From a virus, in the IMG/VR virus record IMGVR_UViG_3300037116_000081, positions 1 through 64,000 of that record: a stretch of DNA of 64,000 nucleotides; one strand, written 5' to 3'. The notes beneath the pieces were generated by a model. The model saw only the letters and a list, made by a program, of their open reading frames with translations, had not been told where the DNA came from and did not search any database. Position numbers and translations under genes: made by a program. This document shows, in pieces, positions 7,581 through 25,986 of the stretch. Every line of letters starts with the position of its first letter. The first letter of the stretch is position 1.

Positions 7581-8807
7581 GTGGACTATCTCGACAGCGG
7601 CTCTATGTACGGGTCCTTAGATAGCGCTCCCCTTGCGCCTCCGGATCCGCAATCGTCAACGCCAGCGAGCGCAGCGATCGCGAAAACTGGCCCTATCATT
7701 AAAGAGAAGATCCCCGCGGCGCCCGACACCGACACATCGACTAAGCAGACCATTGCGAAGATGTGCGAGTACATCGCGGCCGGCGCCTCCGATGACGTGT
7801 GCCAGTTATGGGCAAAGCAAGCGCGCGAACGTTGGGCTGGCCAGTTCAACCAAGTAGCGTCTGTAACCGGCCGAATGGTGCCGCAAACCTCAGGCGATTG
7901 TTGGGGCGTGTGGTGGATGGTGAAACACGCCGTCAAGTTCGCGAAGGACGAACCGCGGTTGTTTCAGATCGGTGAGCCCGATGCGCTCGATTTATTGATA
8001 GCGCCCGCGGTGCTCGTGCGTGAACAGGATCGCAAGGAAGATTGCGACGGCTTCACGATGCTGGTGTGCTGCCTACTCAAGATTCTGGGGATCTCATCGG
8101 TCATTGTGACGGTGGCGGCGGACCCATCCGATCCGGAACGCTGGTCGCACGTCTTCCCGATGGCTGAAGTGAACGGTGCGTATCTTCCAATGGACGCATC
8201 GCACGGAAAGTTCCCTGGCTGGATGGTTCCGCGCGATCACATCTCCCGATGGCAGGCTTGGGACCTCAACGGCAATCCAGTGCAGGCGTTTCCGTCACAG
8301 GCGAAGAACACGCTACACGGATATCTTCCACGCGGGGCGCCGATGCGGAAACGCGGGATGCGCGGACTCGGGCAGACGGACTATACATCAGTGGCGAGCT
8401 CCACGGGTGACTACCAAGTTTTCAGTGATGGCACAGTCTTTGATCCGAACGGCAATGTCGTTACAGATTTCAGCGCGTTGCCTAACTCGTTAACGACCCA
8501 GATTAACAGTGCCCTGAATCCGCTGGCCATCAGCACGCCCGCAACGCCAACTGCCACCAGCGCGTCCGGAACCCCTACCAACTGGACCGGCATTATCAAC
8601 AGTATCGTTTCAGGCGGATTGAAAGCAGCGCAGCTTGCGACGTTGCCTCCGGGCTATGTGATCGGCGCGAATGGCCAGCCCGTGTACACAGGGCAGTCCG
8701 CGGCGAATGCACAACTCACATCCAGCTTCGCGAGTATCCTGCCGTGGTTAGCGATTGGATTGGTTGCGGCTGTAGTGGTCATTCCACTTCTTGGGAGCAA
8801 GCAGTGA
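7581..8807 (+). CDS. Transglutaminase-like cysteine protease/acyltransferase with C-terminal membrane anchor
   Basis: EDCDG...HVFP...PMDAS Cys-His-Asp triad; RGMRGLGQ motif; PW-TM tail; start is GTG 7581 or ATG 7605. Confidence 0.8.
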   Translation: MDYLDSGSMYGSLDSAPLAPPDPQSSTPASAAIAKTGPIIKEKIPAAPDTDTSTKQTIAKMCEYIAAGASDDVCQLWAKQARERWAGQFNQVASVTGRMVPQTSGDCWGVWWMVKHAVKFAKDEPRLFQIGEPDALDLLIAPAVLVREQDRKEDCDGFTMLVCCLLKILGISSVIVTVAADPSDPERWSHVFPMAEVNGAYLPMDASHGKFPGWMVPRDHISRWQAWDLNGNPVQAFPSQAKNTLHGYLPRGAPMRKRGMRGLGQTDYTSVASSTGDYQVFSDGTVFDPNGNVVTDFSALPNSLTTQINSALNPLAISTPATPTATSASGTPTNWTGIINSIVSGGLKAAQLATLPPGYVIGANGQPVYTGQSAANAQLTSSFASILPWLAIGLVAAVVVIPLLGSKQ

Positions 8808-9557
8808 ATGTACGTCTCTTCAAGATCTTCCGTCTCGCGCTGCACTGGAGTAGCAGCGCGGGGAACAGTCTCGCGATCGCTTGGCGATATCTCCTCACCG
8901 CAGTCCATCAATCAGATAGTAACGGTTGGCGCATCGACTACTGTTGGAATTCTTGTAGCGTTAGGCACGGTTACGGGTCCGATTGGAGCGGCCATCGCTG
9001 GCTTGATCGCAGTTGGCTCGCTTATCGCCAACATGTTTCACGGCTGTGGGCAGACCTGCGTAGTCGCGACACAGGACGCGAACAAGATCGGCGCGTTGCT
9101 CGATCAGAATCAGGCAGCGTATATGAACGCCCCGGTTCACTACAAGAGCTTGCAAGCGGCGGCGCTAAACAACATCAACACGCTCGCGGCGGCATTGCAG
9201 CAAGCGTGCAGCGATCCATCTTTAGGGCAGGCTGGGCAGCGCTGCATCTCCGAAAGATTGGTCAGGCGTCCGTGTCCGAGCACGTTGAACGATTCGAATA
9301 TCGGCGGCGGGCAGATCAAGTTCTGCGATTACTGGAGCTTCTATTACGATCCGATCGCGAACGATCCGAATGTAGTTCCGGACCCCACGCCAGCTTCGTC
9401 GGGTCCAGCTTCAGCGGCGGTCTCTTCGGTGGGCTCCGCAATTTCTTCTGTGCTGCCTTCATCGGTCAGCAGTCTTTTGACCGGGAGCGTCTTTGGTCTT
9501 CCAGTGTGGCTGCTCGGCGCGGTGGCGCTCACGGCCTTGTGGGTGGCGAGCGAATGA
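8808..9557 (+). CDS. Putative virion membrane protein
   Basis: SLGD motif, Gly/Ala TM hairpin, Cys-rich domain and C-terminal PVW-TM. Confidence 0.75.
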   Translation: MYVSSRSSVSRCTGVAARGTVSRSLGDISSPQSINQIVTVGASTTVGILVALGTVTGPIGAAIAGLIAVGSLIANMFHGCGQTCVVATQDANKIGALLDQNQAAYMNAPVHYKSLQAAALNNINTLAAALQQACSDPSLGQAGQRCISERLVRRPCPSTLNDSNIGGGQIKFCDYWSFYYDPIANDPNVVPDPTPASSGPASAAVSSVGSAISSVLPSSVSSLLTGSVFGLPVWLLGAVALTALWVASE

Positions 9558-9615
9558 TCCGTTTTCCTCGCATCCTCGCATCATTTTCCTCGCATCCTCG
9601 TATTGCGGAGGCCTT

Positions 9616-10443
9616 GTGTTTCTAAAAGTACAAGCGGGGCTCTCCGGCATCGGCCAAACCGTTCTGATGCGTCAACCAGGCGGGCGCGTGATGCGCGTCC
9701 AAATGCCGATCGTGTTGGATAGGCCTCGGGGGATGCGTGGCTTAGGCGTTACGTGTCCCACGGGCTTGGTGCAGGCTGCAAACGGCGGCTGCATTGATCC
9801 TGGTTACGCTCCCAACAAAAATGTAGCGGCGGCAAGTCCCAAAGCCGTGACCTACGCATCGGCTCCCGGCTGCAACGTGGTGAACCTCGCATCGAACGAA
9901 TGCATGTTGGACGACGGGACAATCACGGGCTGCAACATCATCCAGCAGTGTGATTCGCTCACCGGCAACGCGAGATGTCAGTATGGGCCGTTCCCTGGCC
10001 AAGCTGCTGATCCAAGTTTGCCGTTCTGCTCTGGAAGCGGGCCGTCCGTTTCGTACACGCCGAATTTGAGTCTCACGAACCCGACAGGGCCGTCAACGCC
10101 GTTCACTCCCACGGCGCTTGCGCCGAATGCCGTTCCGGTAGGATCGAGCCCCACGGCGGCGCAGGTTAAAAGCCTGCTTGGGCAGACTCAGCCTACATCG
10201 TCAACGGCAGCGAGTTCGCCGGCGGCATCGCCAACACAGCCGAGTTCCCAAACGAATTTTCTCCAGCAACTCTTAGCCGGGCCGAATCCTCCAGCGGGCG
10301 GATCGACTACGGCGGTGGCGTCTTCGGATAGTTCGTTATTTAGCGGTTCGCTCGACGTGTTCGGTATGCAGATTCCATACTGGCTCATTGGTGTTGTGGT
10401 CGTCGGCGGCGGGATTCTCCTCATGAGCGGGGGCAAGAAATGA
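9616..10443 (+). CDS. Cys-rich tail-anchored virion membrane protein
   Basis: GGAGG RBS and GTG start; GLSGIGQ and RGMRGLG motifs; PYW-TM-GGKK. Confidence 0.75.
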   Translation: MFLKVQAGLSGIGQTVLMRQPGGRVMRVQMPIVLDRPRGMRGLGVTCPTGLVQAANGGCIDPGYAPNKNVAAASPKAVTYASAPGCNVVNLASNECMLDDGTITGCNIIQQCDSLTGNARCQYGPFPGQAADPSLPFCSGSGPSVSYTPNLSLTNPTGPSTPFTPTALAPNAVPVGSSPTAAQVKSLLGQTQPTSSTAASSPAASPTQPSSQTNFLQQLLAGPNPPAGGSTTAVASSDSSLFSGSLDVFGMQIPYWLIGVVVVGGGILLMSGGKK

Positions 10444-10727
10444 GACGCGGCTTTCGTGGTCTCGGTCAACCATCATCGCCTTTGCCGATGTCACCAGGTG
10501 GATTCTGTCCAACGCTCGGCGCTGTGTGTCCCTACGGCTATACGCTCGACGCGAGCAACTGTCCGAACTATCCATGTCAAGCCGCGGCGGTCGCTACGGC
10601 TACAACCGGAATCGATTTTTCGTTTCTCACAAATCCGGTGATGATTGGAACCATGTCCATTCCGACGTGGGCTATCGGGCTCGCCGTGATCGTGGGCGGC
10701 TACTTCCTGATGGGAGGCAAAAAATAA
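10440..10727 (+). CDS. Small tail-anchored virion membrane protein
   Basis: MRRGFRGLGQ leader; PTW-TM-GGKK. Confidence 0.8.
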   Translation: MRRGFRGLGQPSSPLPMSPGGFCPTLGAVCPYGYTLDASNCPNYPCQAAAVATATTGIDFSFLTNPVMIGTMSIPTWAIGLAVIVGGYFLMGGKK

Positions 10728-11335
10728 TGGCTAAGCAAGACGGCACGATGGGCGAAGTAATCAAGTGGGTTCTGATTTTGGGCGGCGGGTATCTCGCTTA
10801 CGAGTATTTCATTGCGCCGATGCTGGCCACGACTCTGGCGCCCACGACCGGCGTAACGCCAGCAGCTACAACCGTGACGGGCACACCGGTATCGAGCACG
10901 AATACGACGACGGCTACTCCGGTTACTGTGACGACGCCTCCTCCGCCTCCCGTCAATGCGTACCCACTTTCAAACACGATTCCGAATGCAACCGGGACCG
11001 CGGCTACTCTCGCATCAGCCTTGATTGCGCGAGCGACTTCAGACGGTGTTGCAAAGGGCGGATTGGTCAATGGAAGTATCGCCTACACTCCACAGCAGTG
11101 GAATTACATTTTCAACGAAATGAATCCCGGTAACACGAAGAACCTGCCTAGCTCTTCGCAGGCCATGAGCGCGGGCGATTACACACTCGCGCGGGCGACG
11201 GCGTTTGGACAAGCGGGATTGAGCGGGCTCGGACAACTGATGCGCGTCGGGCGAAATACTTTACGGACAGGCGGGCGTCAACCGATGCGAACAGGATATG
11301 TACGGGCAGGAACGCCAATGCGGAGGACCGGATGA
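10727..11335 (+). CDS. Virion membrane protein with N-terminal TM
   Basis: TAATG coupling; Thr/Pro linker; C-terminal GLSGLGQ followed by an Arg-rich tail. Confidence 0.75.
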   Translation: MAKQDGTMGEVIKWVLILGGGYLAYEYFIAPMLATTLAPTTGVTPAATTVTGTPVSSTNTTTATPVTVTTPPPPPVNAYPLSNTIPNATGTAATLASALIARATSDGVAKGGLVNGSIAYTPQQWNYIFNEMNPGNTKNLPSSSQAMSAGDYTLARATAFGQAGLSGLGQLMRVGRNTLRTGGRQPMRTGYVRAGTPMRRTG

Positions 11336-11694
11336 GACTCTATAGAACTCCGATGCGTGGCTTTCGTGGATTAGGGCAGACGTATCAGACCGTCTCGACT
11401 GCTGCTGGCGACTATCAAGTAGTTACGGCCCCGGACGGAACAGTCACCACTTTTGACCCATCAGGCAACATCGTTTCTGGCGTTGCCGTGGGGCCGCTTC
11501 AAGCTGGCCAATCAGCGCTCGCGTTTTCTGCGTCAATCAATCCATCAGGCTCGGCGGCTCCGGCTTCACTCGCGTCTCTGTTTCCAGGAATGACTGGCAA
11601 TACAACTGTTGCTGGTGTGTCGGTCCCTTCGTGGCTCGTGCCGGTTGCTCTGATAGCTGGCGCGTTTTTCGTCTATAAGGCTTTTGGGAAATGA
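11332..11694 (+). CDS. Small tail-anchored virion membrane protein
   Basis: MRGFRGLGQ; region after the motif is homologous to that of 7581..8807; PSW-TM. Confidence 0.8.
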   Translation: MRLYRTPMRGFRGLGQTYQTVSTAAGDYQVVTAPDGTVTTFDPSGNIVSGVAVGPLQAGQSALAFSASINPSGSAAPASLASLFPGMTGNTTVAGVSVPSWLVPVALIAGAFFVYKAFGK

Positions 11695-11921
11695 AGAATC
11701 CGGCTCCAACCCGTTTACGTGACGCCGATCCGCGCGGGCGCATGGACGTAGCTGCGTTTCGCTTCGCTGAGAACATGGCAGAAAAAGCAGGCGCGAAGGA
11801 ATTCTGGAATGCGGGCTTGGGTGATTTTGTCGAGACGGTGATTAACGGCACGGTGCCGGCAAAAGCAATCACAGGGCAGGATGTAGCGAAGGCGCTGGGT
11901 TTGGGAGGCAGAAAGCGGTAA
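11691..11921 (+). CDS. Small hypothetical virion protein
   Basis: Coupled on both sides; AGLGD motif. Confidence 0.65.
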   Translation: MKNPAPTRLRDADPRGRMDVAAFRFAENMAEKAGAKEFWNAGLGDFVETVINGTVPAKAITGQDVAKALGLGGRKR

Positions 11922-12436
11922 TGCCTTATTTCCGCACAGGAGCACGGATGCGGCGCGGCGTCGGCCAAATCGCTACGGCTACGCTTGGGCCGGCCGGAAC
12001 GGGCATCGCTCAATACGACGCGAGCGGCCGCTACTTGGGCGGGAGCACGATGATGGATGCGTATTGCGGTTCAAGCATCGGGCAGTTCTTCAGTCCGACT
12101 ACGTGCGCGATCCCGACTCCAGCGCAAATCACGGCTACGCAGACTGCGGAACTTGCGACTACTTCAGCTCCCCCAGCAGTGCAGGCGGCGGCGATCGCGG
12201 CGGGCAATGCGCTAGTTGCGCAAGACGCGGCAGCAAACCCGGCAAATTACCAACAGCAGATCGCGGCGTCGAATTGGCCGGAACTTTCAGCGCTGATCGG
12301 TCCCGCGGCGGTGGCTACGTTGTTTCCCGTCGATGTGACGGATCCGAATAATCCAATTCCCCAAGTCCCGTGGCTTCTGATCGGAATTGTAGTGGTGGGC
12401 TTCTCTGTCTTCTACGCATACGGAGGGAAGCATTGA
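11921..12436 (+). CDS. Tail-anchored virion membrane protein
   Basis: MRRGVGQ leader; PW-TM-GGKH. Confidence 0.8.
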   Translation: MPYFRTGARMRRGVGQIATATLGPAGTGIAQYDASGRYLGGSTMMDAYCGSSIGQFFSPTTCAIPTPAQITATQTAELATTSAPPAVQAAAIAAGNALVAQDAAANPANYQQQIAASNWPELSALIGPAAVATLFPVDVTDPNNPIPQVPWLLIGIVVVGFSVFYAYGGKH

Positions 12437-12768
12437 GCTACATCCAATACACACCGAAAGCTCCACTCTCTACGTGCGTGACGAAGGTGCGTGGGATGGG
12501 GCAGGACGCGACTTCAACTTCGACGGACACCGTAACAGGGCTCTCGATTCCGAATCCGCTTACGATCTTCAGCAATCTTTTTTCATCGACCGACTTTTCA
12601 ACGTGGGGTATAGGTGAGTGGATCGTAATCGCGGGCGTCGGGTTTCTCGCGTTGAAACTCGTTACCGGTGTGCTCTCGGCAGGCAGCGCAGTAAAGAGCA
12701 CGGTTCGTAAGCGGCAGCGGCGAGCGAAGAAGCGGCAAGGGCTGCTGGACGATCTGAGGGATCTATGA
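12433..12768 (+). CDS. Virion membrane protein with basic tail
   Basis: TTG overlapping the upstream stop; VRGMGQD; TM followed by RKRQRRAKKR. Confidence 0.7.
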   Translation: MSYIQYTPKAPLSTCVTKVRGMGQDATSTSTDTVTGLSIPNPLTIFSNLFSSTDFSTWGIGEWIVIAGVGFLALKLVTGVLSAGSAVKSTVRKRQRRAKKRQGLLDDLRDL

Positions 12769-12832
12769 GACGACTGAGGGACACCCCGAAAGCTTCAACG
12801 CGCTGCTACTCCAGTGCAGCGCGAAACGGAGA

Positions 12833-13192
12833 ATGTTCATGAGAGGATTCGGTAGCTACAGCAAAACTCCAACTCCATGGGGATGGGAATATTATCCCCC
12901 ACCGTACCGCTTTGCTTCACCGTCCACGGGGCCTAGCGGAATACGTCCGACTTACGCGAGCGCGCGATACATGGGCATGACAACACGAGCGTTGAGCAAC
13001 CAGGGCGGCGGGCTCGGATGTGCGGGGCAGTGCGGTTGCGGTGGGACGTGCGGCATGGGGCAAGTGGATCTTTCGTTTCTGACGAATACGTTCAGCTTGG
13101 CGGGCTACCAGATTCCGGTCTGGATTGGGCTCATGGTTGGGATCGGCGCGGTCGCAATGTACAGCGGGTTGAGCAATAAAAAGAGACGATGA
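12833..13192 (+). CDS. Tail-anchored virion membrane protein
   Basis: MRGFG and CGMGQ motifs; PVW-TM-KKRR. Confidence 0.75.
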   Translation: MFMRGFGSYSKTPTPWGWEYYPPPYRFASPSTGPSGIRPTYASARYMGMTTRALSNQGGGLGCAGQCGCGGTCGMGQVDLSFLTNTFSLAGYQIPVWIGLMVGIGAVAMYSGLSNKKRR

Positions 13193-13434
13193 CTTTAACG
13201 CTTTCACAAACGGCGCAACCTCAGATTTTTACCGATATGGGCTCGTATGCCCACGTCGGAGTGGGATTCATGGCCGGGTATCTTTCACCTGGCTGGGCGC
13301 TCGCGATTGCGGCGGCGTTCATCGGGTATCAATTGTCTCAGGTTTCGGCGGGCGTGCCCTGGGGACGGACGGGCGGGGAAGTGATCGAGTTTGCGTTAGG
13401 AGCTGCTATAGCGGCGCTGGTGGCAAAAAAATGA
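13189..13434 (+). CDS. Small 3-TM membrane protein
   Basis: Hydrophobic; translationally coupled. Confidence 0.7.
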   Translation: MTLTLSQTAQPQIFTDMGSYAHVGVGFMAGYLSPGWALAIAAAFIGYQLSQVSAGVPWGRTGGEVIEFALGAAIAALVAKK

Positions 13435-16498: not shown

Positions 16499-16523
16499 GG
16501 CGGCCTGACGCAAGGGAAAACAC

Positions 16524-18280: not shown

Positions 18281-18324
18281 GTCTTGCGCTGCTCTGGAAT
18301 GCAGCGCGGAGAAAGGTCGATCAA

Positions 18325-18486: not shown

Positions 18487-18547
18487 AACGAAATTCGAAT
18501 GCGCTGCTACTCCAGTGCAGCGCGAAACGGAAAATGGAGAGCGAGTA

Positions 18548-19204: not shown

Positions 19205-19636
19205 ATGAGACTCGCAAACCTCACCGATTACCAGTTGCAGGGCTGTAACCGTTGGCAACTTCCAAACGGAGCCATCAAGCTCGCTATTGCTCGAGTGATC
19301 CCGTTTTATCAGTTCATCAACGCTACCCAAGTTTTGAACGATCTCGAAGTAGGCACACCCCCAGATCACGACTTCGTGTGCAAGGTTGTCAGCTCAACCG
19401 GAGTAACACCAGGGACTTTAGTGCAGATTCAGTGGCCTGATGGCCGCTACTTGTCAAATCCGGGCGTCGATTTCTTCAGCTTTGTCGGCACCGGGCGGCG
19501 CGGAAGGTTGATTTCCCCGCATAAATTCATGCCCAAAAATTCGAAAATACGCATCAATCTGGATAATTCCCTGGTGGCGTCGAATGCCAACATGGAGATA
19601 TATTTTGAAGGCGTAATTCTGGTGGACATGGTATGA
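19205..19636 (+). CDS. Beta-rich minor capsid/penton-like protein (one domain)
   Basis: D.DF...IQWPDGRYLS...F.G pattern shared with the next two genes. Confidence 0.55.
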   Translation: MRLANLTDYQLQGCNRWQLPNGAIKLAIARVIPFYQFINATQVLNDLEVGTPPDHDFVCKVVSSTGVTPGTLVQIQWPDGRYLSNPGVDFFSFVGTGRRGRLISPHKFMPKNSKIRINLDNSLVASNANMEIYFEGVILVDMV

Positions 19637-20559
19637 CAGGGAATCCATACGCGCCGTCCTGGATGGGCTACACGCCCGTCATTGCGGGAGTCGAAGACTT
19701 CGAATTCGATCTCGACTTACAACCCGTTGCGGTCCCGGCCGGCTCGTTTGTTCTTGGGACTGCGCTCGCGGTTGACGTTGACGCGGATTATCTCGTCAGA
19801 GAGATGCAGTTTTTCGTTACCGCGGTCACGATTGACGGCGGAGCTGCGCCAGCCACGGCTTTAGCTTCTGATATCCGCGTGCGCATCCGAGATGGACAGG
19901 GCAGGCTGTTTACATCCGACTTCATTCCGATAGCGGATCTAAGCGGGCCGCTCTGTCCACCGTGGCCAGTACGGCGCGGTTCGGTGCTTCTGATCGACTA
20001 CCAGAACATCAATACGACCGCCTCAGAAATCGCCACAGTCTGGATGCTGCTGAAGGGCTGGAAACGGAATCCATGTCCCGGCACGAAGGCTTTCACCCCT
20101 CCGTACGTCCCGATGTATCGGCAATACCCGACACCGCAACCGGGGACCGAATTTGAAGACTTTGAATATCCCTTCACGTTCACCGAACCCGGCGCGATCG
20201 ATCTTCTGAAAATCCCATTGCAGACGGATAACGACGCGGATTTCTGGTGGTGCGGAATCTCAGGGGATTGGAACACGGCTAACAACGATGTCGCTGTAGT
20301 CGGAAGTGTGGGCGTCACGTTTTACGACGCGATCGGCTTGCCTATGATGCAAGCGAGACTCTTGAATCCGTGGGGCTCACTGGTTGGACCGTTGTTCCGC
20401 GAGTCCGTCTTTTCCTCAGGCGGCGGGAGACCCGCTGGCTTCTTGCCTGCGATCTTCATTCCGAGGGGCGGGGTTATCCAGGTGGATATGAGTTTCGGCC
20501 AAGCTGCGACGTTGCGGTTCTCGCTTCGCGGGAAGAAAATCTACGGAGCCTGCAAATGA
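19633..20559 (+). CDS. Minor capsid-like protein with two tandem beta domains
   Basis: Internal repeat EDFEF..DVDADY..LKGWK / EDFEY..DNDADF..LRGKK. Confidence 0.6.
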   Translation: MTGNPYAPSWMGYTPVIAGVEDFEFDLDLQPVAVPAGSFVLGTALAVDVDADYLVREMQFFVTAVTIDGGAAPATALASDIRVRIRDGQGRLFTSDFIPIADLSGPLCPPWPVRRGSVLLIDYQNINTTASEIATVWMLLKGWKRNPCPGTKAFTPPYVPMYRQYPTPQPGTEFEDFEYPFTFTEPGAIDLLKIPLQTDNDADFWWCGISGDWNTANNDVAVVGSVGVTFYDAIGLPMMQARLLNPWGSLVGPLFRESVFSSGGGRPAGFLPAIFIPRGGVIQVDMSFGQAATLRFSLRGKKIYGACK

Positions 20560-21365
20560 TCGAGCGGCCACAGTGGTACAGCTTCTCTTATGTCAACACC
20601 GCTTTGGCGGCGGGCGCGCAGCGTCTTTATCAGGAGTTGACGCTCGACACTGACGCGCCGTTCCGAATGACAGGCGTTGCGGTGTACGTCTTCAATTCAG
20701 CAGGCGTTCCGCTAGGACCGGCGGGTAACGTTGGGGTGACGTTGCGGTTCACGATGCCGGATTTATCGTGGATTCAAAAACATCTCGACTCCGCGCAACT
20801 TGTGAATACCTACGACGCGCAAGCGGTTAATGGTGCGGGTGGTCTGACGGCTCCCTACTACGCTTACTTTTCTCCGCTCGGGAAAAACCTTTTCTATCAG
20901 ACAGGCTCGCGTATCGTGATTGACTTCGCGGAACTCGCGGGAATCACAGACGCCGTGGTGATGATTGTTTTCCTCGGGACCAAACTCTACGGCGATGGTT
21001 CGGTGTGGTGGCCGATTCATGACCCGACGAAACCAGCTCGGCCTTATATCGGTTACTCAGTGCAGTTCGATCCGACCAAACTTCCGTTGTATAACATTCC
21101 GTTGAGCATCAACCCGGATGCGGATTTCGCTTGGCAGTGCGGCGCCCAAACATCGCAACCCGCGGCGGCTCTTTCGCCGGTAGGGGCAATCCGGAACATC
21201 GGGATCAAGGTCAAAGACTGGACGGGAAAGTATTACATGAACGACTACATCCCGCTCGATCTGATCTTTGGCTTCGACAATTCTCAAACGCCCGGCTTGT
21301 TGTACCCTGAAATCTACATTCCGAAAAATCAATTGCTCTACATGGATCTGGAGACCTTGGGATAA
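20556..21365 (+). CDS. Minor capsid-like protein with two tandem beta domains
   Basis: ATGA coupling; LDTDAPF..FLGTK / INPDADF..KDWTGKYYMND repeats. Confidence 0.6.
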   Translation: MIERPQWYSFSYVNTALAAGAQRLYQELTLDTDAPFRMTGVAVYVFNSAGVPLGPAGNVGVTLRFTMPDLSWIQKHLDSAQLVNTYDAQAVNGAGGLTAPYYAYFSPLGKNLFYQTGSRIVIDFAELAGITDAVVMIVFLGTKLYGDGSVWWPIHDPTKPARPYIGYSVQFDPTKLPLYNIPLSINPDADFAWQCGAQTSQPAAALSPVGAIRNIGIKVKDWTGKYYMNDYIPLDLIFGFDNSQTPGLLYPEIYIPKNQLLYMDLETLG

Positions 21366-22594
21366 TGGGCGGATTTCTATTCAATAACAAGATAATCGGC
21401 AGCGGCGGCTATCCGCAGAGCGATCAGTTTGGGATTTTCATGACGCCGATCAACGGGCCTGACGGCAGTACCTACCCACCAGGTGGAGCCGTTTTAGCTT
21501 CGCTTGCCGTGTGCGCTCCATTAAGCAGCGGGAGCGGTGCCGGATATGCCGCAGCAATAGTATTGCAACGGCAAGGTTATCCGGGCGGCTGGCTGAATCA
21601 ACTGGATTTGATTCCGGGCACGGGCGTGGACGCGACAGCAACGGCGGGTTTCCCCGGACTGAGCGGAAACACTGCCATCATCAGCTACTATGTGTCCGGC
21701 GTGTTTCCAAACGGCGCGGCATTCGCTTGCGTGAGAAATTCTGTCGGGGTGTGGAGCATTCAGCAGCAATTGGTCCCTGGCGACGGCGCTCCGCAGCAAA
21801 ATTACGGCTTCACATGCTCTATCTTTGGAAATATCGCAGTGATTGCGTCAACGGTGGGAGACGGCCCCGCTATCTATGTGTTTCTGCGAACCGGGACCAC
21901 GTGGACGCAGGTCCAGCAGTTCCAACCGGGCGACATAGGGCCGAGTGACGATCTTGCGGTAGCGGCGATGACCGCGAACCAATTGTTTCTGAGCGCGAAT
22001 GAGCAGAACACGAACACCGGCGCGGTGTACGTTTACACTCTCGTGGGCGGGCAATACCAGTTCACTCAGAAACTTGTTGGAGCTTCGGCCAATGATTTCT
22101 TCGGCGTTAATGTGAGCTGCGACGGGAACACGCTGGTAATCGGCGGCGGCTTCAGTACCACTGGCAAAGCTTACGTCTACACCAAAGCTGGATCAGCATG
22201 GGCAATTTTGCAGACGCTCGTAGGATCAGACAGCTTGAGCGGAGACAGGTTCGGCGAAGGCGTTGCGGTATCTGGAACGTTGATGGCTGTAGGGGCTCCT
22301 ATTGCTACGGTAGGCGGACATGCTATTGCCGGCGCGGCCTACGTCTTTCAATTGATCGCGGGGGTTTGGACCCAAACGCAAAAGCTCACAGCGCCCGTGC
22401 CGGCAGCCAACACCTATTTCGGTTTGTCGGCAGGAGCCATTGCCGGATCACCTTCTTGGATCGCAGTGGGCGCTCCGGCGATCGCGAACGCGGCAGTAGA
22501 AGGCGCGGCGTACTTTTTCTACGGCCCTGCAATCGCGCCTGTAGCTGATCCCTTCGTGACCCTGACATTCAAAGGACAGAAGGTGTACGCATGA
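21365..22594 (+). CDS. FG-GAP-repeat beta-propeller protein (spike candidate)
   Basis: Repeated FG.(G/S)V...VGAP...GAAYVF...W.Q.QKL units. Confidence 0.85.
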   Translation: MGGFLFNNKIIGSGGYPQSDQFGIFMTPINGPDGSTYPPGGAVLASLAVCAPLSSGSGAGYAAAIVLQRQGYPGGWLNQLDLIPGTGVDATATAGFPGLSGNTAIISYYVSGVFPNGAAFACVRNSVGVWSIQQQLVPGDGAPQQNYGFTCSIFGNIAVIASTVGDGPAIYVFLRTGTTWTQVQQFQPGDIGPSDDLAVAAMTANQLFLSANEQNTNTGAVYVYTLVGGQYQFTQKLVGASANDFFGVNVSCDGNTLVIGGGFSTTGKAYVYTKAGSAWAILQTLVGSDSLSGDRFGEGVAVSGTLMAVGAPIATVGGHAIAGAAYVFQLIAGVWTQTQKLTAPVPAANTYFGLSAGAIAGSPSWIAVGAPAIANAAVEGAAYFFYGPAIAPVADPFVTLTFKGQKVYA

Positions 22595-23217
22595 GCGCAG
22601 GCGCTTACTGCACATTCCCGGCACTGCCGCCGTTCAACCCCCTTCGGCTCGCGTCAAATTATCGCGACGGCTACGGAGATCCGCACGCACTCTTGACCGA
22701 GCTTACGGACGCGGTCATCGCATCTGGCTGCTACGTGCCGAGAATCTTTCACGCACCTGACACGTCTGTCGATAACGAGATTCTGCAAACCAACAGATTT
22801 CTCGAATACGCTTTGGCCTTACCGATCGGCTCTTTCATTCTGGCCTACCTACACGGATACACGGCGGCTCCCAGTGCGAACGTTACCGATCCTCCGGTCG
22901 CCTCAGGCTTTCGAGTTCAAATCACGGACATCAAGCCGAACTATAAGTTTTTCGGCAAGCCGGTCCCTGAAGCATTCTTTCTGAATGACATCCCGAGCGC
23001 GAATCCGAACAGCGTGCTTTCGCCAAATTTGTTGTCAGTCCAAAACCAGAGCGCGCGATTGTTGACAGCTCCATATCCCGTGACGGCGCCTGGAATTTTC
23101 AAGATCGAATTCTGGAATATCCTCACAACGGGGAATGTCTCGGCAACGTTGAACCCGAACGTCAGGCTGTCGTTTTTAGTTGCCATCCCTGACCCGGATT
23201 TGAAGGTGGGATCATAA
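22591..23217 (+). CDS. Beta-rich structural protein
   Basis: Coupled; FRVQITD strand resembles the 19205-21365 family. Confidence 0.6.
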   Translation: MSAGAYCTFPALPPFNPLRLASNYRDGYGDPHALLTELTDAVIASGCYVPRIFHAPDTSVDNEILQTNRFLEYALALPIGSFILAYLHGYTAAPSANVTDPPVASGFRVQITDIKPNYKFFGKPVPEAFFLNDIPSANPNSVLSPNLLSVQNQSARLLTAPYPVTAPGIFKIEFWNILTTGNVSATLNPNVRLSFLVAIPDPDLKVGS

Positions 23218-23220
23218 ACC

Positions 23221-23721
23221 ATGGGCGCACTCTCGTTAGCAGACATCCAAAAAGACAAGCGCGATTGGGCAACGTCCTACGTTCCGCCAGAGCGGATCAT
23301 TCCGATCCATCGTCTCCCGATCACTGCGCTCGGCTCAGTTCTATCGCCGGCGTACGGGGTGCTGAATCAAACGCTGATAGTGACTTACACAGTGCGGGCG
23401 AATTGGGCGTGCCTTATAACTCACATCGTGCTCGGCTTCGCGGGACCCGCACCGGCTCCTCTGCCTGGTGACATTATCTGGTCGATTGACATTGATCGGA
23501 ATCTAGGGAGTATGGCGGGATACTTCGAGAAGGACTACGGGAATATCAACATGCCGCTCGGGAGCTTCACGCACGGCTGGATGTGGCCCGTAGAATTTCA
23601 GCACCGGGACAATGAAATCATCCGGGTCAAGGCGTACACGAATCAGAACGTCGCGACGGGTCCGGGCGCGTTCATCACAGCCGCTCTGATCGGCTACGAA
23701 TGGCCGGAGGATTCAGACTAA
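23221..23721 (+). CDS. Beta-rich structural protein (penton-like candidate)
   Basis: Position; ends in ALIGYEW. Confidence 0.6.
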   Translation: MGALSLADIQKDKRDWATSYVPPERIIPIHRLPITALGSVLSPAYGVLNQTLIVTYTVRANWACLITHIVLGFAGPAPAPLPGDIIWSIDIDRNLGSMAGYFEKDYGNINMPLGSFTHGWMWPVEFQHRDNEIIRVKAYTNQNVATGPGAFITAALIGYEWPEDSD

Positions 23722-24584
23722 TGAAACGTTATCTTCTAGCGGCCGCTCTCGCCGTTTCTGCCTACGCACAGGTCCCCGCTCCGGATTGCATCGCCAGCTT
23801 CACTCTGAGCGCGGCGGGCTCCCAAACTGGCTTTGCGAACCAGGGCTGCATCTTTTGGAACATGACGTATCGAAACTTCGGTTTCACGGGGCTCTCTCTG
23901 ACTCTCCAGCAAGCTCCGGATGCGAACAACGCACCAGGTACGTGGAAGACTTTCGCGGGCACGGGCGAAGTGGGCTCGAATCCGTCAACGTCGATCACGG
24001 GCGCTTACTACACGATCATTGCATTGGATACCGATCTTGCGGCGTGGGTGCGAGTGACGCTCTCCGGACTAACAGGAACCGGCTTCGTTACCGGCTACGC
24101 CTTCGGGTACAAGACTTACCCCGGCGCGTCAGGCGGCGGTGGCGGCGGTGGCGGCTGTACATCTCCCTGCGTTGTCATTGGACCGGACGCTACGGGTGTG
24201 ACTCCTACTCAAGACCCGGTACAAATCGCGACTACGGACGGCTCCGGGAACGTGGTCCGTCCAATGTACTGCTCACTCAGTGCGCCGATCACGGTTACAG
24301 GGTCCGGGCTTACTCAGATCGTGGCGCTCAGTGGTGGACAGCAAATTGAGATTTGCAACATCTCCGTTTCCTTCGCGTCGGGCGTGGATTTCCAGCTCGA
24401 AACCGGCACAGGCTCAAATTGCGCGGGCGCGACTACCGCACTTACGGGCGTATACAAGACAGTGCTTACGGTCGCACTCGATTTCACCAGCGGCACACTG
24501 AACGGTGTTGTCTCTCAAGCCCTCTGCATCAACCTTGGCGCGGGCGTCACAGGCGGCGGCGTCGTAAACTACGGCCTGAGGTAA
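23721..24584 (+). CDS. Signal-peptide-bearing two-domain spike protein
   Basis: MKRYLLAAALAVSAYAQ signal; poly-Gly linker. Confidence 0.7.
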   Translation: MKRYLLAAALAVSAYAQVPAPDCIASFTLSAAGSQTGFANQGCIFWNMTYRNFGFTGLSLTLQQAPDANNAPGTWKTFAGTGEVGSNPSTSITGAYYTIIALDTDLAAWVRVTLSGLTGTGFVTGYAFGYKTYPGASGGGGGGGGCTSPCVVIGPDATGVTPTQDPVQIATTDGSGNVVRPMYCSLSAPITVTGSGLTQIVALSGGQQIEICNISVSFASGVDFQLETGTGSNCAGATTALTGVYKTVLTVALDFTSGTLNGVVSQALCINLGAGVTGGGVVNYGLR

Positions 24585-24585
24585 A

Positions 24586-25986
24586 ATGCTAAATCTGAAA
24601 TCCAAGTGGGTTAAACTGTCTGCCGGTTTGATGGCCGGAGCTGCGCTTCTGTGGGCCTCAGGGATCGCGCCGCAAGCCTACAACCTGATCGTGGGCAACG
24701 GGACACCAGCCGGAAGAGGCAGCACGCTTAGCTTTCCAAACACGGCATCGGTGAGCTGGTCCTGTTCGACTACAGGCATTGTTACCACGTGCCTTGCGAC
24801 CGCATCCGGTGGCGGTGGAGGCAGCGGCGGGGGAATCGTCACGTATTCATCAGGCGCAGCATTGACGCCAGCCGGAACGCAATTCGTAGCTATCGGCGGC
24901 GGCGGGCAAGCATCCGCGACTGAATCTGACGTTGAGATCGGCGCTCCATCAGCCGCGACGATTAGCTCGATGTTTGTCAATCTCGACCTTCCTGCGGGAA
25001 CGGGTAATTCAATCGCGTTCATCTGGCGCAAGGCCGGGGCGGATCAAACTCTTACATGTACGATCTCCGGAGTTTCCGCGACGACCTGCAGCGACACGAC
25101 CCACAGCTTCACTGTGGCGCAGGGCGATTTGATCGACATCAAATTGGTTACGACAGGCACGGTCATTGTAGCTCCCGGCCTGACCATCGCGACGGCCTAC
25201 GGAGTCTCCGGATCGGCTGGGTATTTGACCATTCAGAATAACGGTACTCCACTCGCGCAAGAGCCGGTGTTGAATCTTACGGACGGCACGAACACGACGA
25301 TGGTCTGTGCCGACAATCCAGGTGTTGCAACAAACTGCCAAGTCAACGCATCGGGCGGAGGCGGTGGCACTTTCTCCGCTCTTCCGCCGTACTTGTATGA
25401 CGGCACTAATTATTTCGCGCCTTCCTCCGCAGTTGTCAAGCCTGTGCCGGGTAACTTCACATGGCAGAATCAAGGCGGTGCTACGAACACGACCACTGCG
25501 AACGGGGCGATCTATCTGCTAGGGACAAACGGGAGCCTTGACAACCGATTCTATGAAGAAGCTTGTCCGGGAAGCACCCCTTACACAATCACGGTTGCAT
25601 TCATGCCCCAATTAACGGCTAACACTTTCGCTTGGCTGGGTTTTGGATTCCGTGATCCCGTCGCCGGGAGACTTGAATATATGGCGCTGGAAGGCAACGG
25701 GGCTCAGATCGAAGTTGCTTTATGGGGCTCGATTGCGGGTTTTGCTGGACGAAGCGCTAACAGGTCAGTAGCAGCGGTTCCTTCTGTTCTGTGGTTTAGG
25801 GTGGGGAATGACGGTACAAATCTAACTTTTTCCTGGAGCGTAGACGGTATCAATTTCTTTCAAATACTGGCCGATCCAATCTCCGGCGGTTTTCTGAACG
25901 CCACTCCTACACAATGCGGGTTCTTCTTGGTTAACAACGATTCGAGCCCTGCAATCAGCGCGATGACAGTCTTGAGTGTCCAATGA
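24586..25986 (+). CDS. Multi-domain spike/receptor-binding protein with lectin-like C-domain
   Basis: Signal-like N-terminus; poly-Gly linkers; WFRV..DG.NLTFSWS.DG.NF motif. Confidence 0.7.
   Translation: MLNLKSKWVKLSAGLMAGAALLWASGIAPQAYNLIVGNGTPAGRGSTLSFPNTASVSWSCSTTGIVTTCLATASGGGGGSGGGIVTYSSGAALTPAGTQFVAIGGGGQASATESDVEIGAPSAATISSMFVNLDLPAGTGNSIAFIWRKAGADQTLTCTISGVSATTCSDTTHSFTVAQGDLIDIKLVTTGTVIVAPGLTIATAYGVSGSAGYLTIQNNGTPLAQEPVLNLTDGTNTTMVCADNPGVATNCQVNASGGGGGTFSALPPYLYDGTNYFAPSSAVVKPVPGNFTWQNQGGATNTTTANGAIYLLGTNGSLDNRFYEEACPGSTPYTITVAFMPQLTANTFAWLGFGFRDPVAGRLEYMALEGNGAQIEVALWGSIAGFAGRSANRSVAAVPSVLWFRVGNDGTNLTFSWSVDGINFFQILADPISGGFLNATPTQCGFFLVNNDSSPAISAMTVLSVQ

Follow-up and report, generated by a model that had tools for sequence, protein, structure and literature searches.

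The stretch of DNA analysed here (the window, 64,000 nucleotides) is the first 64 kb of the IMG/VR record IMGVR_UViG_3300037116_000081. The record is 85.9 kb long and consists of two tandem units whose boundary segments are repeated. Unit 1 (~257–41,470 of the record) contains a proposed tailless-virus module, and unit 2 (41.5–85.9 kb) is a tailed phage of the usual kind, encoding a capsid, a tail tube and a terminase. Past the window end, outside the view of an earlier sequence-only reading, the record runs on into the tailed-phage module with its terminase. On the + strand of unit 1, positions 7,560–26,162 form one tight operon, in which half of the 26 neighbouring gene pairs (13, counted from coordinates) share 1 or 4 bases. 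The features of the operon, of a gene divergent from it and of the downstream lysis and entry genes are as follows.

5925..7445, − strand: 506-aa core protein, divergent from the operon, with a conserved N-domain and a conserved C-domain
7560..8807, + strand: transglutaminase-like (papain-fold) cysteine protease candidate, membrane-anchored; opens the operon
8808..13434, + strand: about 10 small, mostly tail-anchored membrane proteins (hydropathy and motif table), at 8808..9557, 9493..10443, 10440..10727, 10730..11335, 11332..11694, 11691..11921, 11921..12436, 12493..12768, 12833..13192 and 13189..13434
13431..14369, + strand: core gene for a 312-aa protein, basic in its N-terminal half and strongly conserved in its C-terminal domain
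14366..14620, + strand: 84-aa extremely basic protein, candidate DNA-condensing (pI 12.0, 33 K+R of 84)
14617..15981, + strand: glycosyltransferase-like protein inside the structural operon (PHROG 14945, 5.1e-10)
16025..16498, + strand: protein of 157 aa with a membrane helix at the N-terminus; its C-part is beta-rich and conserved (37 loci)
16524..17390, + strand: core protein of 288 aa; the N-terminal ~130 aa are rich in Arg and the C-domain is hydrophobic
17490..18173, + strand: proposed major shell protein, a single jelly roll of 227 aa; its gene is the most conserved of all
18545..19204, + strand: tail-anchored membrane protein of about 219 aa (hydropathy; matches in 39 loci)
19205..21365, + strand: beta-rich proteins, candidate minor capsid or vertex proteins (paralogy, 269-aa model), of 143 aa (19205..19636), 308 aa (19633..20559) and 269 aa (20556..21365), the last two with two domains
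21365..22594, + strand: FG-GAP repeat (beta-propeller) protein, spike candidate (PF14312 at 1.6e-30)
22591..23721, + strand: conserved 208-aa and 166-aa proteins
23700..25986, + strand: variable Gly/Thr-rich proteins of 294 aa and 466 aa with hydrophobic N-termini
28543..29163, + strand: GH25 muramidase, endolysin (PF01183 at 8.9e-41)
29677..30210, + strand: 177-aa core protein, candidate virion-borne entry lysin

Unit 1 is an independent genome type of 33–45 kb, with integrated relatives of ~20 kb. Direct terminal repeats are present in four of five IMG/VR relatives, which measure 35.3–45.0 kb, and one complete terminal-repeat genome of 44,054 bp is colinear with 2.3–41.1 kb of the window at about 70% amino acid identity. 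The source contigs of the 80 metagenome loci kept reach at most 44,983 bp; one, a 43.4-kb contig, has a 97% identical capsid gene. The core module also occurs, with gene order unchanged, in two Terriglobia contigs (4.86 Mb and 1.8 Mb), and in the larger it is flanked by 45-bp direct repeats of the tRNA-Gly 3′ end. These proviruses support Terriglobia (Acidobacteriota), soil bacteria, as the host, and with it the original suggestion of a bacterial virus. The further suggestion of an unclassified lineage is likewise supported: the element has no match in 50,697 GenBank phage records, and no published description of this virus group was found.

The sequence-only reading had described an ~18-kb coupled operon of membrane proteins, protamine-like proteins and beta-rich paralogues. 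The coupling is borne out by the gene overlaps. By a crude hydropathy scan, nine proteins end in a C-terminal membrane helix (those starting at 7560, 8808, 9493, 10440, 11332, 11921, 12833, 18545 and 29677) and several further proteins have internal helices; computed over unit 1, the tail-anchored membrane proteins number about a dozen. Several proteins of the array combine a basic N-terminal R-G-[LMFVI]-G-[QD] motif with a C-terminus of the form “P-x-W + helix + GGKK”. Motif and C-terminal helix occur together in seven ORFs of unit 1 and in 5, 2, 4, 4 and 3 ORFs of five relatives, and in 0 of 255 ORFs of the tailed-phage unit. Three basic proteins are indeed present, with pI values of 12.0, 12.0 and 10.2. 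The paralogy applies to the 308- and 269-aa proteins (hhalign probability 99.3%, E 2.5e-20) but not to the 143-, 208- and 227-aa proteins, which are not detectably related to that pair.

Several proteins of the module are candidates for organizing the genome. The 84-aa protein has BLAST matches in only 4 loci because its sequence is of low complexity. The 288-aa protein (pI 12.0, 55 K+R, with a membrane segment) has matches in 76 loci and both Terriglobia proviruses, and its gene always lies directly upstream of the 227-aa gene; it is a candidate link between DNA and membrane. The 312-aa protein (pI 10.2, 57 K+R), matched in 47 fetched loci and in the proviruses (E 1.8e-36 and 9.2e-21), is a candidate core or nucleoprotein component. 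The divergent 506-aa protein, with its AT-hook-like KRPPGRPR N-terminus, belongs to no Pfam, PHROG or Atlas family. Homologues occur in five of five fetched relatives (23–74% identity) and adjoin the module in both proviruses (E 1.8e-23 and 2.8e-11). It is a genome-binding or scaffold candidate.

What might form the shell? The 227-aa protein, which has 309 homologues and 430 clusters at 50% identity, lacks a membrane segment in the hydropathy scan and has no sequence similarity to any solved chain (0 matches at E≤10). As had been anticipated, it is modelled as a jelly roll, an eight-strand beta-sandwich (AlphaFold2, 74-row alignment, pLDDT 78, pTM 0.75). Among solved structures, two independent searches both rank the capsid protein of Sulfolobus polyhedral virus 1 (SPV1) highest. 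The matches are moderate: Foldseek against the PDB places SPV1 6oj0_A first (E 0.011, probability 0.97, TM 0.35/0.43), and VIA, which does not depend on Foldseek and covered 48,161 chains, places SPV1 6oj0_T first (Z 7.3, rmsd 3.8, 135 aligned) and HHIV-2 second (Z 6.3), values to be read knowing that a best Z of 7–8 is typical of models with no clear match and that Z<8 may mean no more than a common arrangement. Virus structural jelly rolls, led by these two, make up about half of 50 VIA rows. The jelly roll also occurs in spikes, cement proteins and lectins. Head-to-tail self-association is predicted with an ipSAE of 0.89 (runs 0.88, 0.89 and 0.90) versus 0.01 for the best control, on a mark reached in calibration by 20 of 30 solved homo-pairs and 1 of 23 single chains, although the run differed from the calibration in using three copies and a custom alignment. 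Contacts agree at ≥82%, with partner pLDDT ≥84. The 227-aa protein is proposed as the major shell protein. Alternatively, capsomers could be built from the paralogous 308- and 269-aa proteins, as happens in two-MCP viruses. The N-domain of the 269-aa model (pLDDT 81.7, pTM 0.82) is a generic jelly roll, with a best VIA Z of 5.6 and Foldseek matches to STIV, PRD1, P23-77 and SPV1 capsid proteins at E≥1.4e-3.

The FG-GAP protein is restricted to the closest relatives (4 loci), and it and the 308-aa protein are alike in their C-terminal strands. One provirus (G394) has a 208-like gene (3.6e-15). The 294- and 466-aa proteins have no family and are poorly conserved among relatives (15 and 5 loci); position and variability make them receptor-binding candidates. 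For the glycosyltransferase-like protein, Pfam GT2 families match weakly, below the cut-off, and the same position in two relatives is occupied by GT1, GT2, GT4 and methyltransferases.

In the protease candidate, the catalytic domain is followed by an RGLGQ motif (residue 269) and an S/T/P linker that leads to a membrane anchor at the C-terminus. C162, H197 and D212 are nearly invariant in 14 orthologues, 8 of which match PF01841 (best 2.3e-11) and 4 of which match DUF553; the window's own copy has no Pfam match, and the Atlas feature matches are Transglut_core clusters at 0.91–0.92. The 177-aa protein has an N-terminal RRRRGFGD motif, a C-terminal membrane helix and a muralytic domain like those found within tape-measure proteins (PHROG 2276 at 5.8e-17; 873, endolysin, 2e-13; 7182, tail injection transglycosylase, 4e-9), and has homologues in five of five relatives.

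The sequence-only reading had found no Walker A motif, terminase, portal or tail gene in 266–41473, and this is upheld. A six-frame search of the whole record with the expression [AG]x4GK[ST] gave 10 matches, of which six fall within 266–41473 and none of these is in a P-loop setting: four are in frames of 22–83 codons, the Arg-rich protein has one 10 residues before its C-terminus, and a 219-aa ORF (32530..33189) has one near its C-terminus. The sole credible Walker A is that of the unit 2 terminase, at 84717, outside the window. A Pfam search of 133 ORFs of ≥85 aa in all frames of 511–41416 (E≤0.01) matched 14 families, among which there is no P-loop ATPase, terminase, portal, capsid, tail, polymerase or integrase. 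Two complete terminal-repeat relatives (137 ORFs) likewise gave no P-loop ATPase, terminase or portal, and in the G394 provirus the sole P-loop ORF between the repeats is a Prim-Pol/DUF927 replication protein. An ATPase is missing in the sense that no recognisable motif of one is present.

Taken as a whole, the 18-kb block looks like the set of particle-building genes of a widespread, previously undescribed group of viruses that lack a tail and contain a membrane. The preferred reading, with a probability of roughly 0.6, is that 7,560–26,162, the 506-aa gene and the lysis and entry genes at 28.5–30.2 kb are the virion module of a motor-free, tailless, internal-membrane dsDNA virus of Terriglobia. 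In such a virus, the 227-aa protein would assemble into ring capsomers, and these into an icosahedral shell that encloses a lipid vesicle carrying the tail-anchored proteins; vertices and spikes would come from the remaining beta-sandwich proteins, the variable proteins and the FG-GAP protein. The genome would be condensed by basic proteins rather than pumped into a preformed shell, and the Arg-rich protein would tie it to the membrane. During maturation, the protease may trim precursors at the conserved R-G-[LMFVI]-G-[QD] sites (putative cleavage). The virion-borne muralytic protein would open the wall at entry and the GH25 endolysin at exit. This reading is built from sequence and predicted structure.

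It is also conceivable, if rather unlikely, that a tailless membrane virus of this kind does use a motor: an ATPase that has diverged beyond recognition, a translocase supplied by the host (FtsK, for instance) or the tailed neighbour's terminase. To our knowledge, all well-studied bacterial internal-membrane dsDNA phages use an ATPase. A terminase is on the same record, 42 kb downstream in the adjoining unit, a tailed prophage also adjoins the tailless G394 provirus in a Terriglobia chromosome, and stray Walker-A-like strings occur in other proteins of 6 of 25 loci of ≥15 kb. Against this stand the searches above, and the stand-alone 33–45-kb terminal-repeat relatives lack any tailed-phage genes. 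A lower probability still attaches to a pleomorphic or vesicle element without an icosahedral shell, like pleolipoviruses or the plasmid vesicle pR1SE, in which a membrane with embedded proteins encloses protein-coated DNA and the jelly rolls are spikes. The many membrane proteins, the basic proteins and the missing motor would fit, as would jelly-roll matches that are moderate only and include fibre and lectin folds. However, the protein predicted to form head-to-tail rings is the most conserved and has no membrane segment, the structures that match it best are shell proteins of icosahedral viruses with a membrane, the homologous protease links the element to an icosahedral phage, and the endolysin argues for lytic release.

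The remaining readings give the tailed phage a larger part, and both are very improbable. The block might belong to a single 86-kb tailed phage as an accessory region, serving for instance envelope remodelling or lysogenic conversion, given that it lies in a single IMG/VR record rated 100% complete by CheckV, whose halves have short intergenic repeats and several cassettes in common. However, the tandem structure with repeated boundaries, the colinearity of unit 1 alone with complete terminal-repeat genomes, the core module standing alone between att repeats in a bacterial chromosome and a search of unit 2 for homologues of module genes, which found none, all count against it. Unit 1 might otherwise be a satellite that lacks its own capsid and is mobilised in the neighbouring phage's capsids; the two adjoin in tandem twice (in the window's record and at G394), and the cassettes in common have 70–98% amino acid identity. 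Yet at 33–45 kb the element is as large as its putative helper, with an 18-kb conserved structural-looking operon and its own lysis and entry enzymes; the satellites known to us are small and have no such modules.

How does the proposed virion module compare with known systems? The sequence-only reading had proposed portoglobovirus-like assembly. The jelly roll and the lack of a recognisable ATPase agree with that proposal, and a genome condensed by basic proteins would resemble the nucleoprotein core of archaeal portogloboviruses; motor-free packaging itself is an inference. That reading overlooked the closest bacterial analogue, Salisaeta phage SSIP-1, which reviews (PMC6356626, PMC6260650, PMC4958249) describe as tailless and membrane-containing, with T=49 and a 44-kb circular genome. 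Its structural protein gp34, which matches PF01841 at 8.9e-7, is computed to be homologous to the protease in sequence and architecture: the family profile matches at E 2.9e-12, phmmer gives 4e-7, and hhalign gives a probability of 96.7% (E 3.8e-10, 131 columns). This was the only significant pair among 252 hhalign comparisons of the family with SSIP-1 proteins, and gp45 and gp46 have no sequence similarity to the 227-aa protein. Because transglutaminase-like domains are common in tailed phages, this homology alone does not prove a shared virion type. SSIP-1 carries a virion P-loop protein, gp40 (AAA_25, 5.3e-11), whereas none is recognised in unit 1; this favours a motor, but no homologue of gp40 occurs in the family at E≤0.01, and its position beside a Toprim-like gene suggests that gp40 may be a replication helicase. 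The likeness extends to layout, since gp34 has the same order of domain, motif (RARGMGE) and C-terminal helix, and SSIP-1 ORF36 combines an N-terminal QGMGD with a C-terminal helix. SSIP-1 is the closest cultured relative or analogue, itself a tailless, membrane-containing phage.

Unit 1 (about 257-41,470), the tailless element under study, is an independent genome type, and in the record it adjoins a tailed phage, unit 2 (41.5-85.9 kb). The record of 85,924 bases has the class linear and a CheckV completeness of 100%. Self-comparison resolves it into two related units in tandem, with repeated boundary segments:

Boundary repeats found by self-comparison of the record
257-366 and 41365-41474, 95%
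599-686 and 41631-41718 (92%), and again 85618-85704 (99%)
870-1910 and 42152-43186, 72%
41623-41938 and 85609-85924, 95.6%
1-159 and 42180-42338, 93%

A short module is seen in three diverged copies, one at each end of unit 1 and one where the record ends, and several of the small genes of 34-41 kb are duplicated at 44-52 kb. On the minus strand beyond the window, unit 2 encodes a tailed-phage morphogenesis module. The following unit 2 genes were recognized:

Tailed-phage genes of unit 2
capsid protein, PF25209 (Phage_capsid_4), 4.2e-15
lambda-like tail tube, PF16461 (TTP_12), 3.2e-6
59514..63506, tape measure (TMP_3)
terminase, 494 aa, with GCHASGKT as the sole well-placed Walker A motif of the record; its Terminase_6N match is weak (19.1 bits, under the cut-off)

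The stretch that joins the two units is present in 23 peat and permafrost runs from 23 studies. In contigs of sequencing run X1, word depth is 9.8-12.4 on the unit 1 side (36119-41660), save for one 109-base contig at 34.9, and 28-31 on the unit 2 side (41688-48000), while contigs of run X3 cover unit 1 and leave several unit 2 bins almost uncovered; these are contig-level figures, and cover and contig depth count as no evidence. The same contig-level data give a hint that, in most tailed-phage molecules, the ends join each other. The 15 loose letters that precede 41688 in X1 are a variant present at 641 and 85659. An apparent joint of 41422 to 41631, with 32 letters between, proved to be a left-end copy (record 509-686) placed on the right-end copy, and is uninformative on circularity.

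Relatives of unit 1 occur on their own, at a consistent size. Direct terminal repeats are present in four of the five long IMG/VR records (44,983, 44,054, 35,311 and 35,587 bases), and the window from 2.3 to 41.1 kb is colinear with one of these four, G002 (44,054 bases), at ~70% amino acid identity, junction region included. IMG/VR holds eight or nine related loci in all. Of 852 candidates, 309 are homologous at E<=1e-3 to the 227-aa proposed shell protein (17490..18173, plus strand); none of the homologues has a name, and their longest contigs cluster at 30-49 kb; at 50% identity the family forms 430 clusters, 143 at E<=1e-10 and 36 at E<=1e-30. JGI metagenomes encode a relative in 87 of 136 candidate stretches, and the 80 that were kept lie on contigs of at most 44,983 bases. 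For example, a 43,412-base JGI contig has a capsid gene that is 97% identical and, over the 16 kb compared, is colinear with 12,995-27,730. A pattern scan of 185,579 species genomes gave only two matches, both whole 41-43-kb contigs binned into metagenome-assembled genomes (MAGs). The 227-aa protein has no tblastn match in GenBank phages or PLSDB plasmids, and a literature search found no published description of the group. A single protein from a distant subfamily (P0260), used as a query, retrieved no viral contig; the alignment of that subfamily (A11) is too variable for scanning. All five long relatives share a set of core genes with unit 1:

Core genes of unit 1 present in five of five long relatives
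4865..5371, core gene
5925..7445 (-), 506-aa protein
7560..8807 (+), 415-aa protease candidate
8808..9557 (+), core gene
13431..14369 (+), 312-aa protein
C-terminal part of 16025..16498 (+), core gene
16524..17390 (+), 288-aa Arg-rich protein
17490..18173 (+), 227-aa proposed shell protein
18545..19204 (+), core gene
20556..21365 (+), 269-aa beta-rich protein
22591..23217 (+), core gene
29677..30210, 177-aa muralytic protein

The two units also have smaller elements in common. A collagen-repeat protein whose N-terminus is signal-like occurs, together with a neighbor of 160-165 aa, at 871-2021 (minus strand) and 42153-43234 (minus strand), with 72%-76% amino acid identity between units, and the unit 2 copy of the pair adjoins a lysozyme-like gene (43250..43651). 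Within unit 1, a gene of 125-128 aa is present in two inverted copies (29223-29600, plus strand, and 33789-34175, minus strand; 85% amino acid identity). In a locus from a close unit 1 relative (L028), bases 13712-14090 are a cassette 80% identical to the first unit 2 gene (record 85230-85612), in the position of window gene 26698..27105; therefore, tailless and tailed viruses exchange cassettes. Intergenic repeats of 33-54 bases, from a few families, lie at 8809-8866, 12794-12836, 18261-18324, 18487-18536 and many sites in 26-41 kb. Since they are shared by the structural operon and the accessory region, they tie the operon to the rest of unit 1. Small paralogues at 39564-39977 and 51522-51881 (both minus strand) have, by eye, a C-terminal PEP motif followed by a hydrophobic helix and basic residues. 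This PEP-CTERM-like sorting signal, for which there is no HMM match at E<=0.01, would fit a host that has an exosortase, such as Acidobacteriota.

The sequence-only reading described an ~18-kb coupled operon of membrane proteins, protamine-like proteins, a 227-aa capsid candidate, beta-rich paralogues and spikes, and this description is borne out. Bases 7560-26162 of the plus strand are a single tight operon; at 13 of its 26 junctions, the adjacent genes share 1 or 4 bases. Roughly a dozen of the products are predicted to have membrane helices, most of them right at the C-terminus, and three products are strongly basic (pI 12.0, 12.0 and 10.2). The operon also encodes beta-rich proteins, an FG-GAP propeller, two variable Gly/Thr-rich proteins and the acidic 227-aa protein, which has no membrane segment. 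Against Pfam and PHROG, the module proteins match almost nothing except a glycosyltransferase and FG-GAP repeats, and an Atlas search with the 506-aa protein returned nothing informative.

The same reading reported no Walker A motif in 266-41473 and no terminase, portal or tail gene, and wider searches agree, apart from stray Walker A strings. A Walker A regular expression matches six times in that interval (10 times in the record), never in a P-loop setting. A Pfam search of all frames of 511-41,416 (133 ORFs of at least 85 aa) recovered 14 families (GH25, FG-GAP, DUF192, Dam, FkbM methyltransferase, collagen, DUF968/HNH, ASCH, GT2 and a few weak ones), with no ATPase, terminase, portal, capsid, tail, polymerase or integrase family among them. 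In the two complete terminal-repeat genomes (G004 and G005), a search of 137 ORFs of at least 110 aa gave 18 Pfam families, including resolvase (two members), the DnaA C-terminal domain (two), glycosyltransferases, methyltransferases, an Ig domain and dockerin; P-loop, terminase, portal and capsid families are absent from these ORFs. Among 25 loci of at least 15 kb (the capsid gene with 10 kb on either side), 11 have a Walker A regular-expression match in an ORF of at least 150 aa. In five of them the match is GDLYGGKS, conserved at the C-terminus of the Arg-rich protein, and the other six are scattered in unrelated proteins. Two of the long relatives, G001 and G003, encode helicase-like proteins of 480 aa and 759 aa with the motif ADCGLGKT, which we take to be replication proteins. 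The terminase family PF03237 is absent from all five long relatives, a null that carries little weight because the terminase of unit 2 itself scores below the cut-off (19.1 versus 22 bits).

Structure prediction and fold search agree with the proposal that the 227-aa protein is a jelly-roll capsid protein, with moderate scores. The AlphaFold2 model (74-row alignment; pLDDT 78.2, pTM 0.75) shows eight strands, preceded by an N-terminal arm that is disordered. Foldseek against PDB places the capsid protein of Sulfolobus polyhedral virus 1 (SPV1, Portogloboviridae) at the top (6oj0_A, E 0.011, probability 0.97, TM 0.35/0.43), with no match at E<=1e-3; the rest of the list is mostly single-jelly-roll coat proteins, including those of SH1, HHIV-2 and P23-77 (VP17). 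VIA, which is independent of Foldseek and was run over 48,161 representative chains, also ranks SPV1 first (Z 7.3, rmsd 3.8, 135 aligned), followed by HHIV-2 (Z 6.3) and, lower down, HCIV-1, P23-77 VP17 and VP16, STIV A223, PRD1 P5, phiCjT23 and FLiP. The SPV1 match is given weight because two independent methods agree on it. In BFVD, the best match is I1ZBH9 (E 4e-4, probability 1.00, TM 0.44/0.47), an unnamed 211-aa viral protein that may be gp46 of the tailless, membrane-containing Salisaeta phage SSIP-1, and SPV1 VP4 is at rank 20. These moderate model-based scores speak to fold and not to ancestry, and a profile of the 227-aa protein (alignment A1) has no match among PDB sequences at E<=10.

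Three copies of the 227-aa protein are predicted to bind one another (ipSAE 0.89 versus 0.01 for the best of three controls). In calibration, the mark was reached by 20 of 30 solved homo-pairs and by 1 of 23 single chains; the present case departs from that calibration in its three copies and custom alignment. Three runs gave at least 82% contact agreement and a partner pLDDT of at least 84. The predicted interface is heterologous (residues 112-196 against 30-36, 62-82, 105-109, 144-168 and 212-221), as would be expected of ring capsomers.

The operon encodes other beta-rich proteins that could contribute to a shell. The 269-aa protein is modeled as two beta domains (pLDDT 81.7, pTM 0.82). Foldseek relates the model, at E values of at least 1.4e-3, to CUB domains, P23-77 VP16 (probability 0.98) and SPV1 (probability 0.99). 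A double jelly-roll reading was considered and set aside, the alignments to the double jelly rolls of STIV, PRD1 and D13 being of low TM (E 1.5e-3 to 7e-3, TM 0.16-0.25, rmsd ~20 Å). VIA aligned the N-domain alone, with a best Z of 5.6. Low TM and an N-domain-only alignment therefore mark the 269-aa protein as a jelly roll of a generic kind rather than as a proven double-jelly-roll capsomer. The 269-aa protein and its 308-aa neighbor (19633..20559) are true paralogues; pairwise comparison rejected the 143-aa (19205..19636), 208-aa and 227-aa proteins as paralogues of this pair. The 227-aa protein and the other beta proteins are candidate builders of a hexagonal lattice.

An alignment of the 415-aa protease candidate with 13 orthologues shows C162, H197 and D212 to be nearly invariant. 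Transglut_core is matched by 8 of the 14 sequences (best 2.3e-11) and DUF553 by four, with no Pfam match for the window's own copy. Past the domain, the proteins continue with R-G-[LMF]-G-[QDE], a variable linker, a C-terminal helix and basic residues. Several small tail-anchored proteins, and the 177-aa muralytic protein too, have this motif in their first 7-15 residues, with Arg or Lys in front of it. ORFs that combine the motif with a C-terminal helix number seven in unit 1 and 5, 2, 4, 4 and 3 in its five relatives, versus 0 of 255 in the tailed unit. Cysteine proteases specific for Gly-Gly and Gly-X-Gly are known. By analogy, the protease would cut the motif, which would be a processing site in virion precursors. 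Cross-linking of Gln to Lys by a transglutaminase-like enzyme was also considered and is unlikely because distant relatives (G003-G005) have D as the last residue of the motif and tails of RR rather than KK. The core 177-aa protein has a muralytic domain of the type embedded in tape measures (PHROG 2276 at 5.8e-17; also PHROG 873, endolysin, 2e-13, and PHROG 7182, injection transglycosylase, 4e-9). The position of this domain between an N-terminal motif and a C-terminal helix suggests an entry enzyme borne on the virion membrane. A GH25 muramidase (8.9e-41) fits lytic release.

Integrated copies point to the hosts. Terriglobia is the class of the MAG behind one of the loci (L024); an HMM search of 401 Terriglobia genomes gave matches in five. 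One of them, G394, is a 4.86-Mb single contig with a compact module in which family HMMs recover the gene order of the window:

Provirus of G394 (contig C1, about 4,838,480-4,859,100), genes matched by family HMMs
protease, E 2.1e-48
249-like gene, E 2.9e-26
312-like gene, E 1.8e-36
288-like gene, E 9.6e-17
227-like gene, E 2.9e-18
143/269-like gene, matched in module order
208-like gene, E 3.6e-15
divergent 506-like gene, E 1.8e-23

This provirus has tRNA-Gly(CCC) on one side and, 20.6 kb away on the other, a 45-base repeat that copies the 3' end of the tRNA perfectly. The interval also encodes an NNPGNL-type muralytic gene and a Prim-Pol/DUF927 replication protein, the sole P-loop ORF between the att repeats. 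Just past the second repeat is a tyrosine integrase (PF00589, 5.6e-13), followed by head-tail connector-like and tape-measure-like genes (read by eye) in a region that runs across the contig end; the region resembles another prophage, of the tailed kind, integrated in tandem behind the tailless provirus. The record from which the window is taken has the same tailless-beside-tailed arrangement. A second genome, G122, has the same core genes on a 1.8-Mb contig. Since the modules in G394 and G122 are chromosomal, bacteria of the class Terriglobia are the hosts, and there are temperate forms among the relatives.

How might such a particle be built? We infer the functions of the module (shell protein identity, lipid, cleavage and motor-free packaging) from sequence and from structure models. 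A single-jelly-roll icosahedral shell and a lipid layer would assemble around pre-condensed, membrane-tethered nucleoprotein, without a packaging motor, and the transglutaminase-fold protease would mature the particle by cutting R-G-x-G-[QD] sites. The unit 1 group can be read as tailless internal-membrane dsDNA viruses with jelly-roll shells, with a substantial chance of deeper novelty. We put at roughly 0.35 the probability of the full reading: these would be the first bacterial viruses on the portoglobovirus plan, with a motor-free shell and lipid around membrane-tethered nucleoprotein, matured by a protease, distantly related to SSIP-1 and forming a new high-rank lineage.

If this reading is right, the lineage is common in peat, permafrost and forest soils, infects Acidobacteriota, has SSIP-1 as a distant, ATPase-bearing cousin and connects bacteria with an orphan family of archaeal viruses. 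Few viruses have been characterized from Acidobacteriota, which rank with the most abundant bacteria of soil. Collections contain few non-tailed dsDNA phages, and virus detection that relies on markers hardly sees them. A group of 430 clusters would fill part of the gap in Acidobacteriota viruses, and would provide the first relatives for the bacterial orphan SSIP-1 and, possibly, for the archaeal Portogloboviridae. Whether a bacterial membrane-containing icosahedral dsDNA virus can assemble without a packaging ATPase becomes testable now, as the Terriglobia genomes with integrated copies offer a route to inducing and imaging particles. The conserved pairing of protease and motif is a candidate virion-maturation system.

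In its working, the module would, by analogy, most resemble SPV1, the points in common being the jelly-roll shell, the lipid, the nucleoprotein core and the lack of a recognizable motor. The SPV1 particle contains an inner layer of lipid and a core of nucleoprotein; the virus has numerous small membrane proteins and encodes a glycosyltransferase and a methyltransferase (PMC8459092), as does unit 1. It has no recognizable polymerase, and no ATPase is among its annotated functions (PMC8459092); unit 1 likewise has no recognizable polymerase or packaging ATPase. However, Portogloboviridae have circular dsDNA of ~20 kb and a hyperthermophilic archaeal host, Saccharolobus (PMC8459092), whereas unit 1 is ~41 kb, its relatives are 33-45 kb and its proviruses ~20 kb, and the hosts are Terriglobia. 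The SPV1 profile also describes no protease or processing motif (PMC8459092), and unit 1 has candidates for both. Portogloboviridae further have VP10, a second jelly-roll protein from which pentons are formed, and the nucleocapsid protein VP1; unit 1 encodes several further beta-sandwich and basic proteins.

Halopanivirales (P23-77, HHIV-2, SH1 and HCIV-1) are tailless, with an internal membrane and two single-jelly-roll capsid proteins. HHIV-2, HCIV-1 and P23-77 VP16/VP17 are among the matches of both the 227-aa and the 269-aa models, and the adjacent paralogous beta-proteins of 308 and 269 aa recall the two capsid proteins of this order. A packaging ATPase is a hallmark of Halopanivirales, where it is encoded beside the two single-jelly-roll genes; in unit 1, jelly-roll proteins are present and no ATPase is recognizable. 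Their genomes are smaller (16-30 kb) and have no sequence similarity to unit 1. PRD1-like viruses (Tectiviridae, Corticoviridae and Turriviridae) resemble unit 1 in their internal membrane, small membrane proteins and virion muralytic enzyme, features that are predicted for unit 1. Unit 1 differs from them in having no recognizable ATPase and no protein-primed polymerase, and a double jelly-roll capsomer is unsupported because the 269-aa alignments have TM of at most 0.25 and rmsd ~20 Å. The hallmarks of Caudoviricetes (terminase, portal, HK97-fold capsid and tail) are absent from 511-41416, G004 and G005 and are all present in unit 2. An analogy can also be drawn with the maturation of adenoviruses, in which a cysteine protease acts at Gly-X-Gly-type sites and the core proteins are Arg-rich. 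Adenoviruses differ in having a protease of the Ulp1/adenain clan, a packaging ATPase and no membrane.

The remaining comparison is with SSIP-1 (JN880423; 43,788 bases, circular, 57 CDS). Reviews describe it as unclassified, tailless and icosahedral, with an internal membrane, T=49, a diameter of ~100 nm and two capsid protein types, possibly single jelly rolls (PMC6356626, PMC6260650, PMC4958249). SSIP-1 comes from a hypersaline habitat and a Bacteroidota-type host, and the unit 1 family from peat and soil and Terriglobia hosts. SSIP-1 also has a structural P-loop protein, gp40 (AAA_25, 5.3e-11; Walker A GEKGSGKS), that adjoins a Toprim-like gene, and a structural giant of 2,319 aa, gp43; neither has a homologue among family ORFs at E<=0.01, and no ORF here is of a size comparable to gp43. 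The unit 1 family lacks defining features of every known group compared: the host and genome size of Portogloboviridae, gp40 and gp43 of SSIP-1, the ATPase of Halopanivirales and PRD1-like viruses, and every hallmark gene of tailed phages.

SSIP-1 nevertheless has the closest counterpart of the protease, although the descriptions excerpted from reviews make no mention of one (PMC6356626, PMC6260650, PMC4958249). The counterpart is found in one short region:

L108 21296-23201, SSIP-1 gp34/ORF36 region

The structural protein gp34 matches the family protease profile at E 2.9e-12 and family members by phmmer at 4e-7, and hhalign pairs it with the family protease at a probability of 96.7% (E 3.8e-10, 131 columns). 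It is itself a Transglut_core protein (8.9e-7), and its layout is that of the 415-aa protein of the window: the transglutaminase-like domain is followed by RARGMGE and then by a C-terminal helix that ends in K. In ORF36, QGMGD at the N-terminus is combined with a C-terminal helix, as in the tail-anchored proteins of the window, and SSIP-1 has several other tail-anchored proteins, two small ORFs of pI 12 and, as here, structural proteins of ~210 aa. The capsid candidates have no sequence similarity to SSIP-1 gp45 or gp46, and among 252 hhalign pairs of a profile with an SSIP-1 protein, gp34 alone is significant. SSIP-1 shares with the unit 1 family a bacterial host, and gp34 is, at the level of sequence, the module's sole apparent tie of ancestry.
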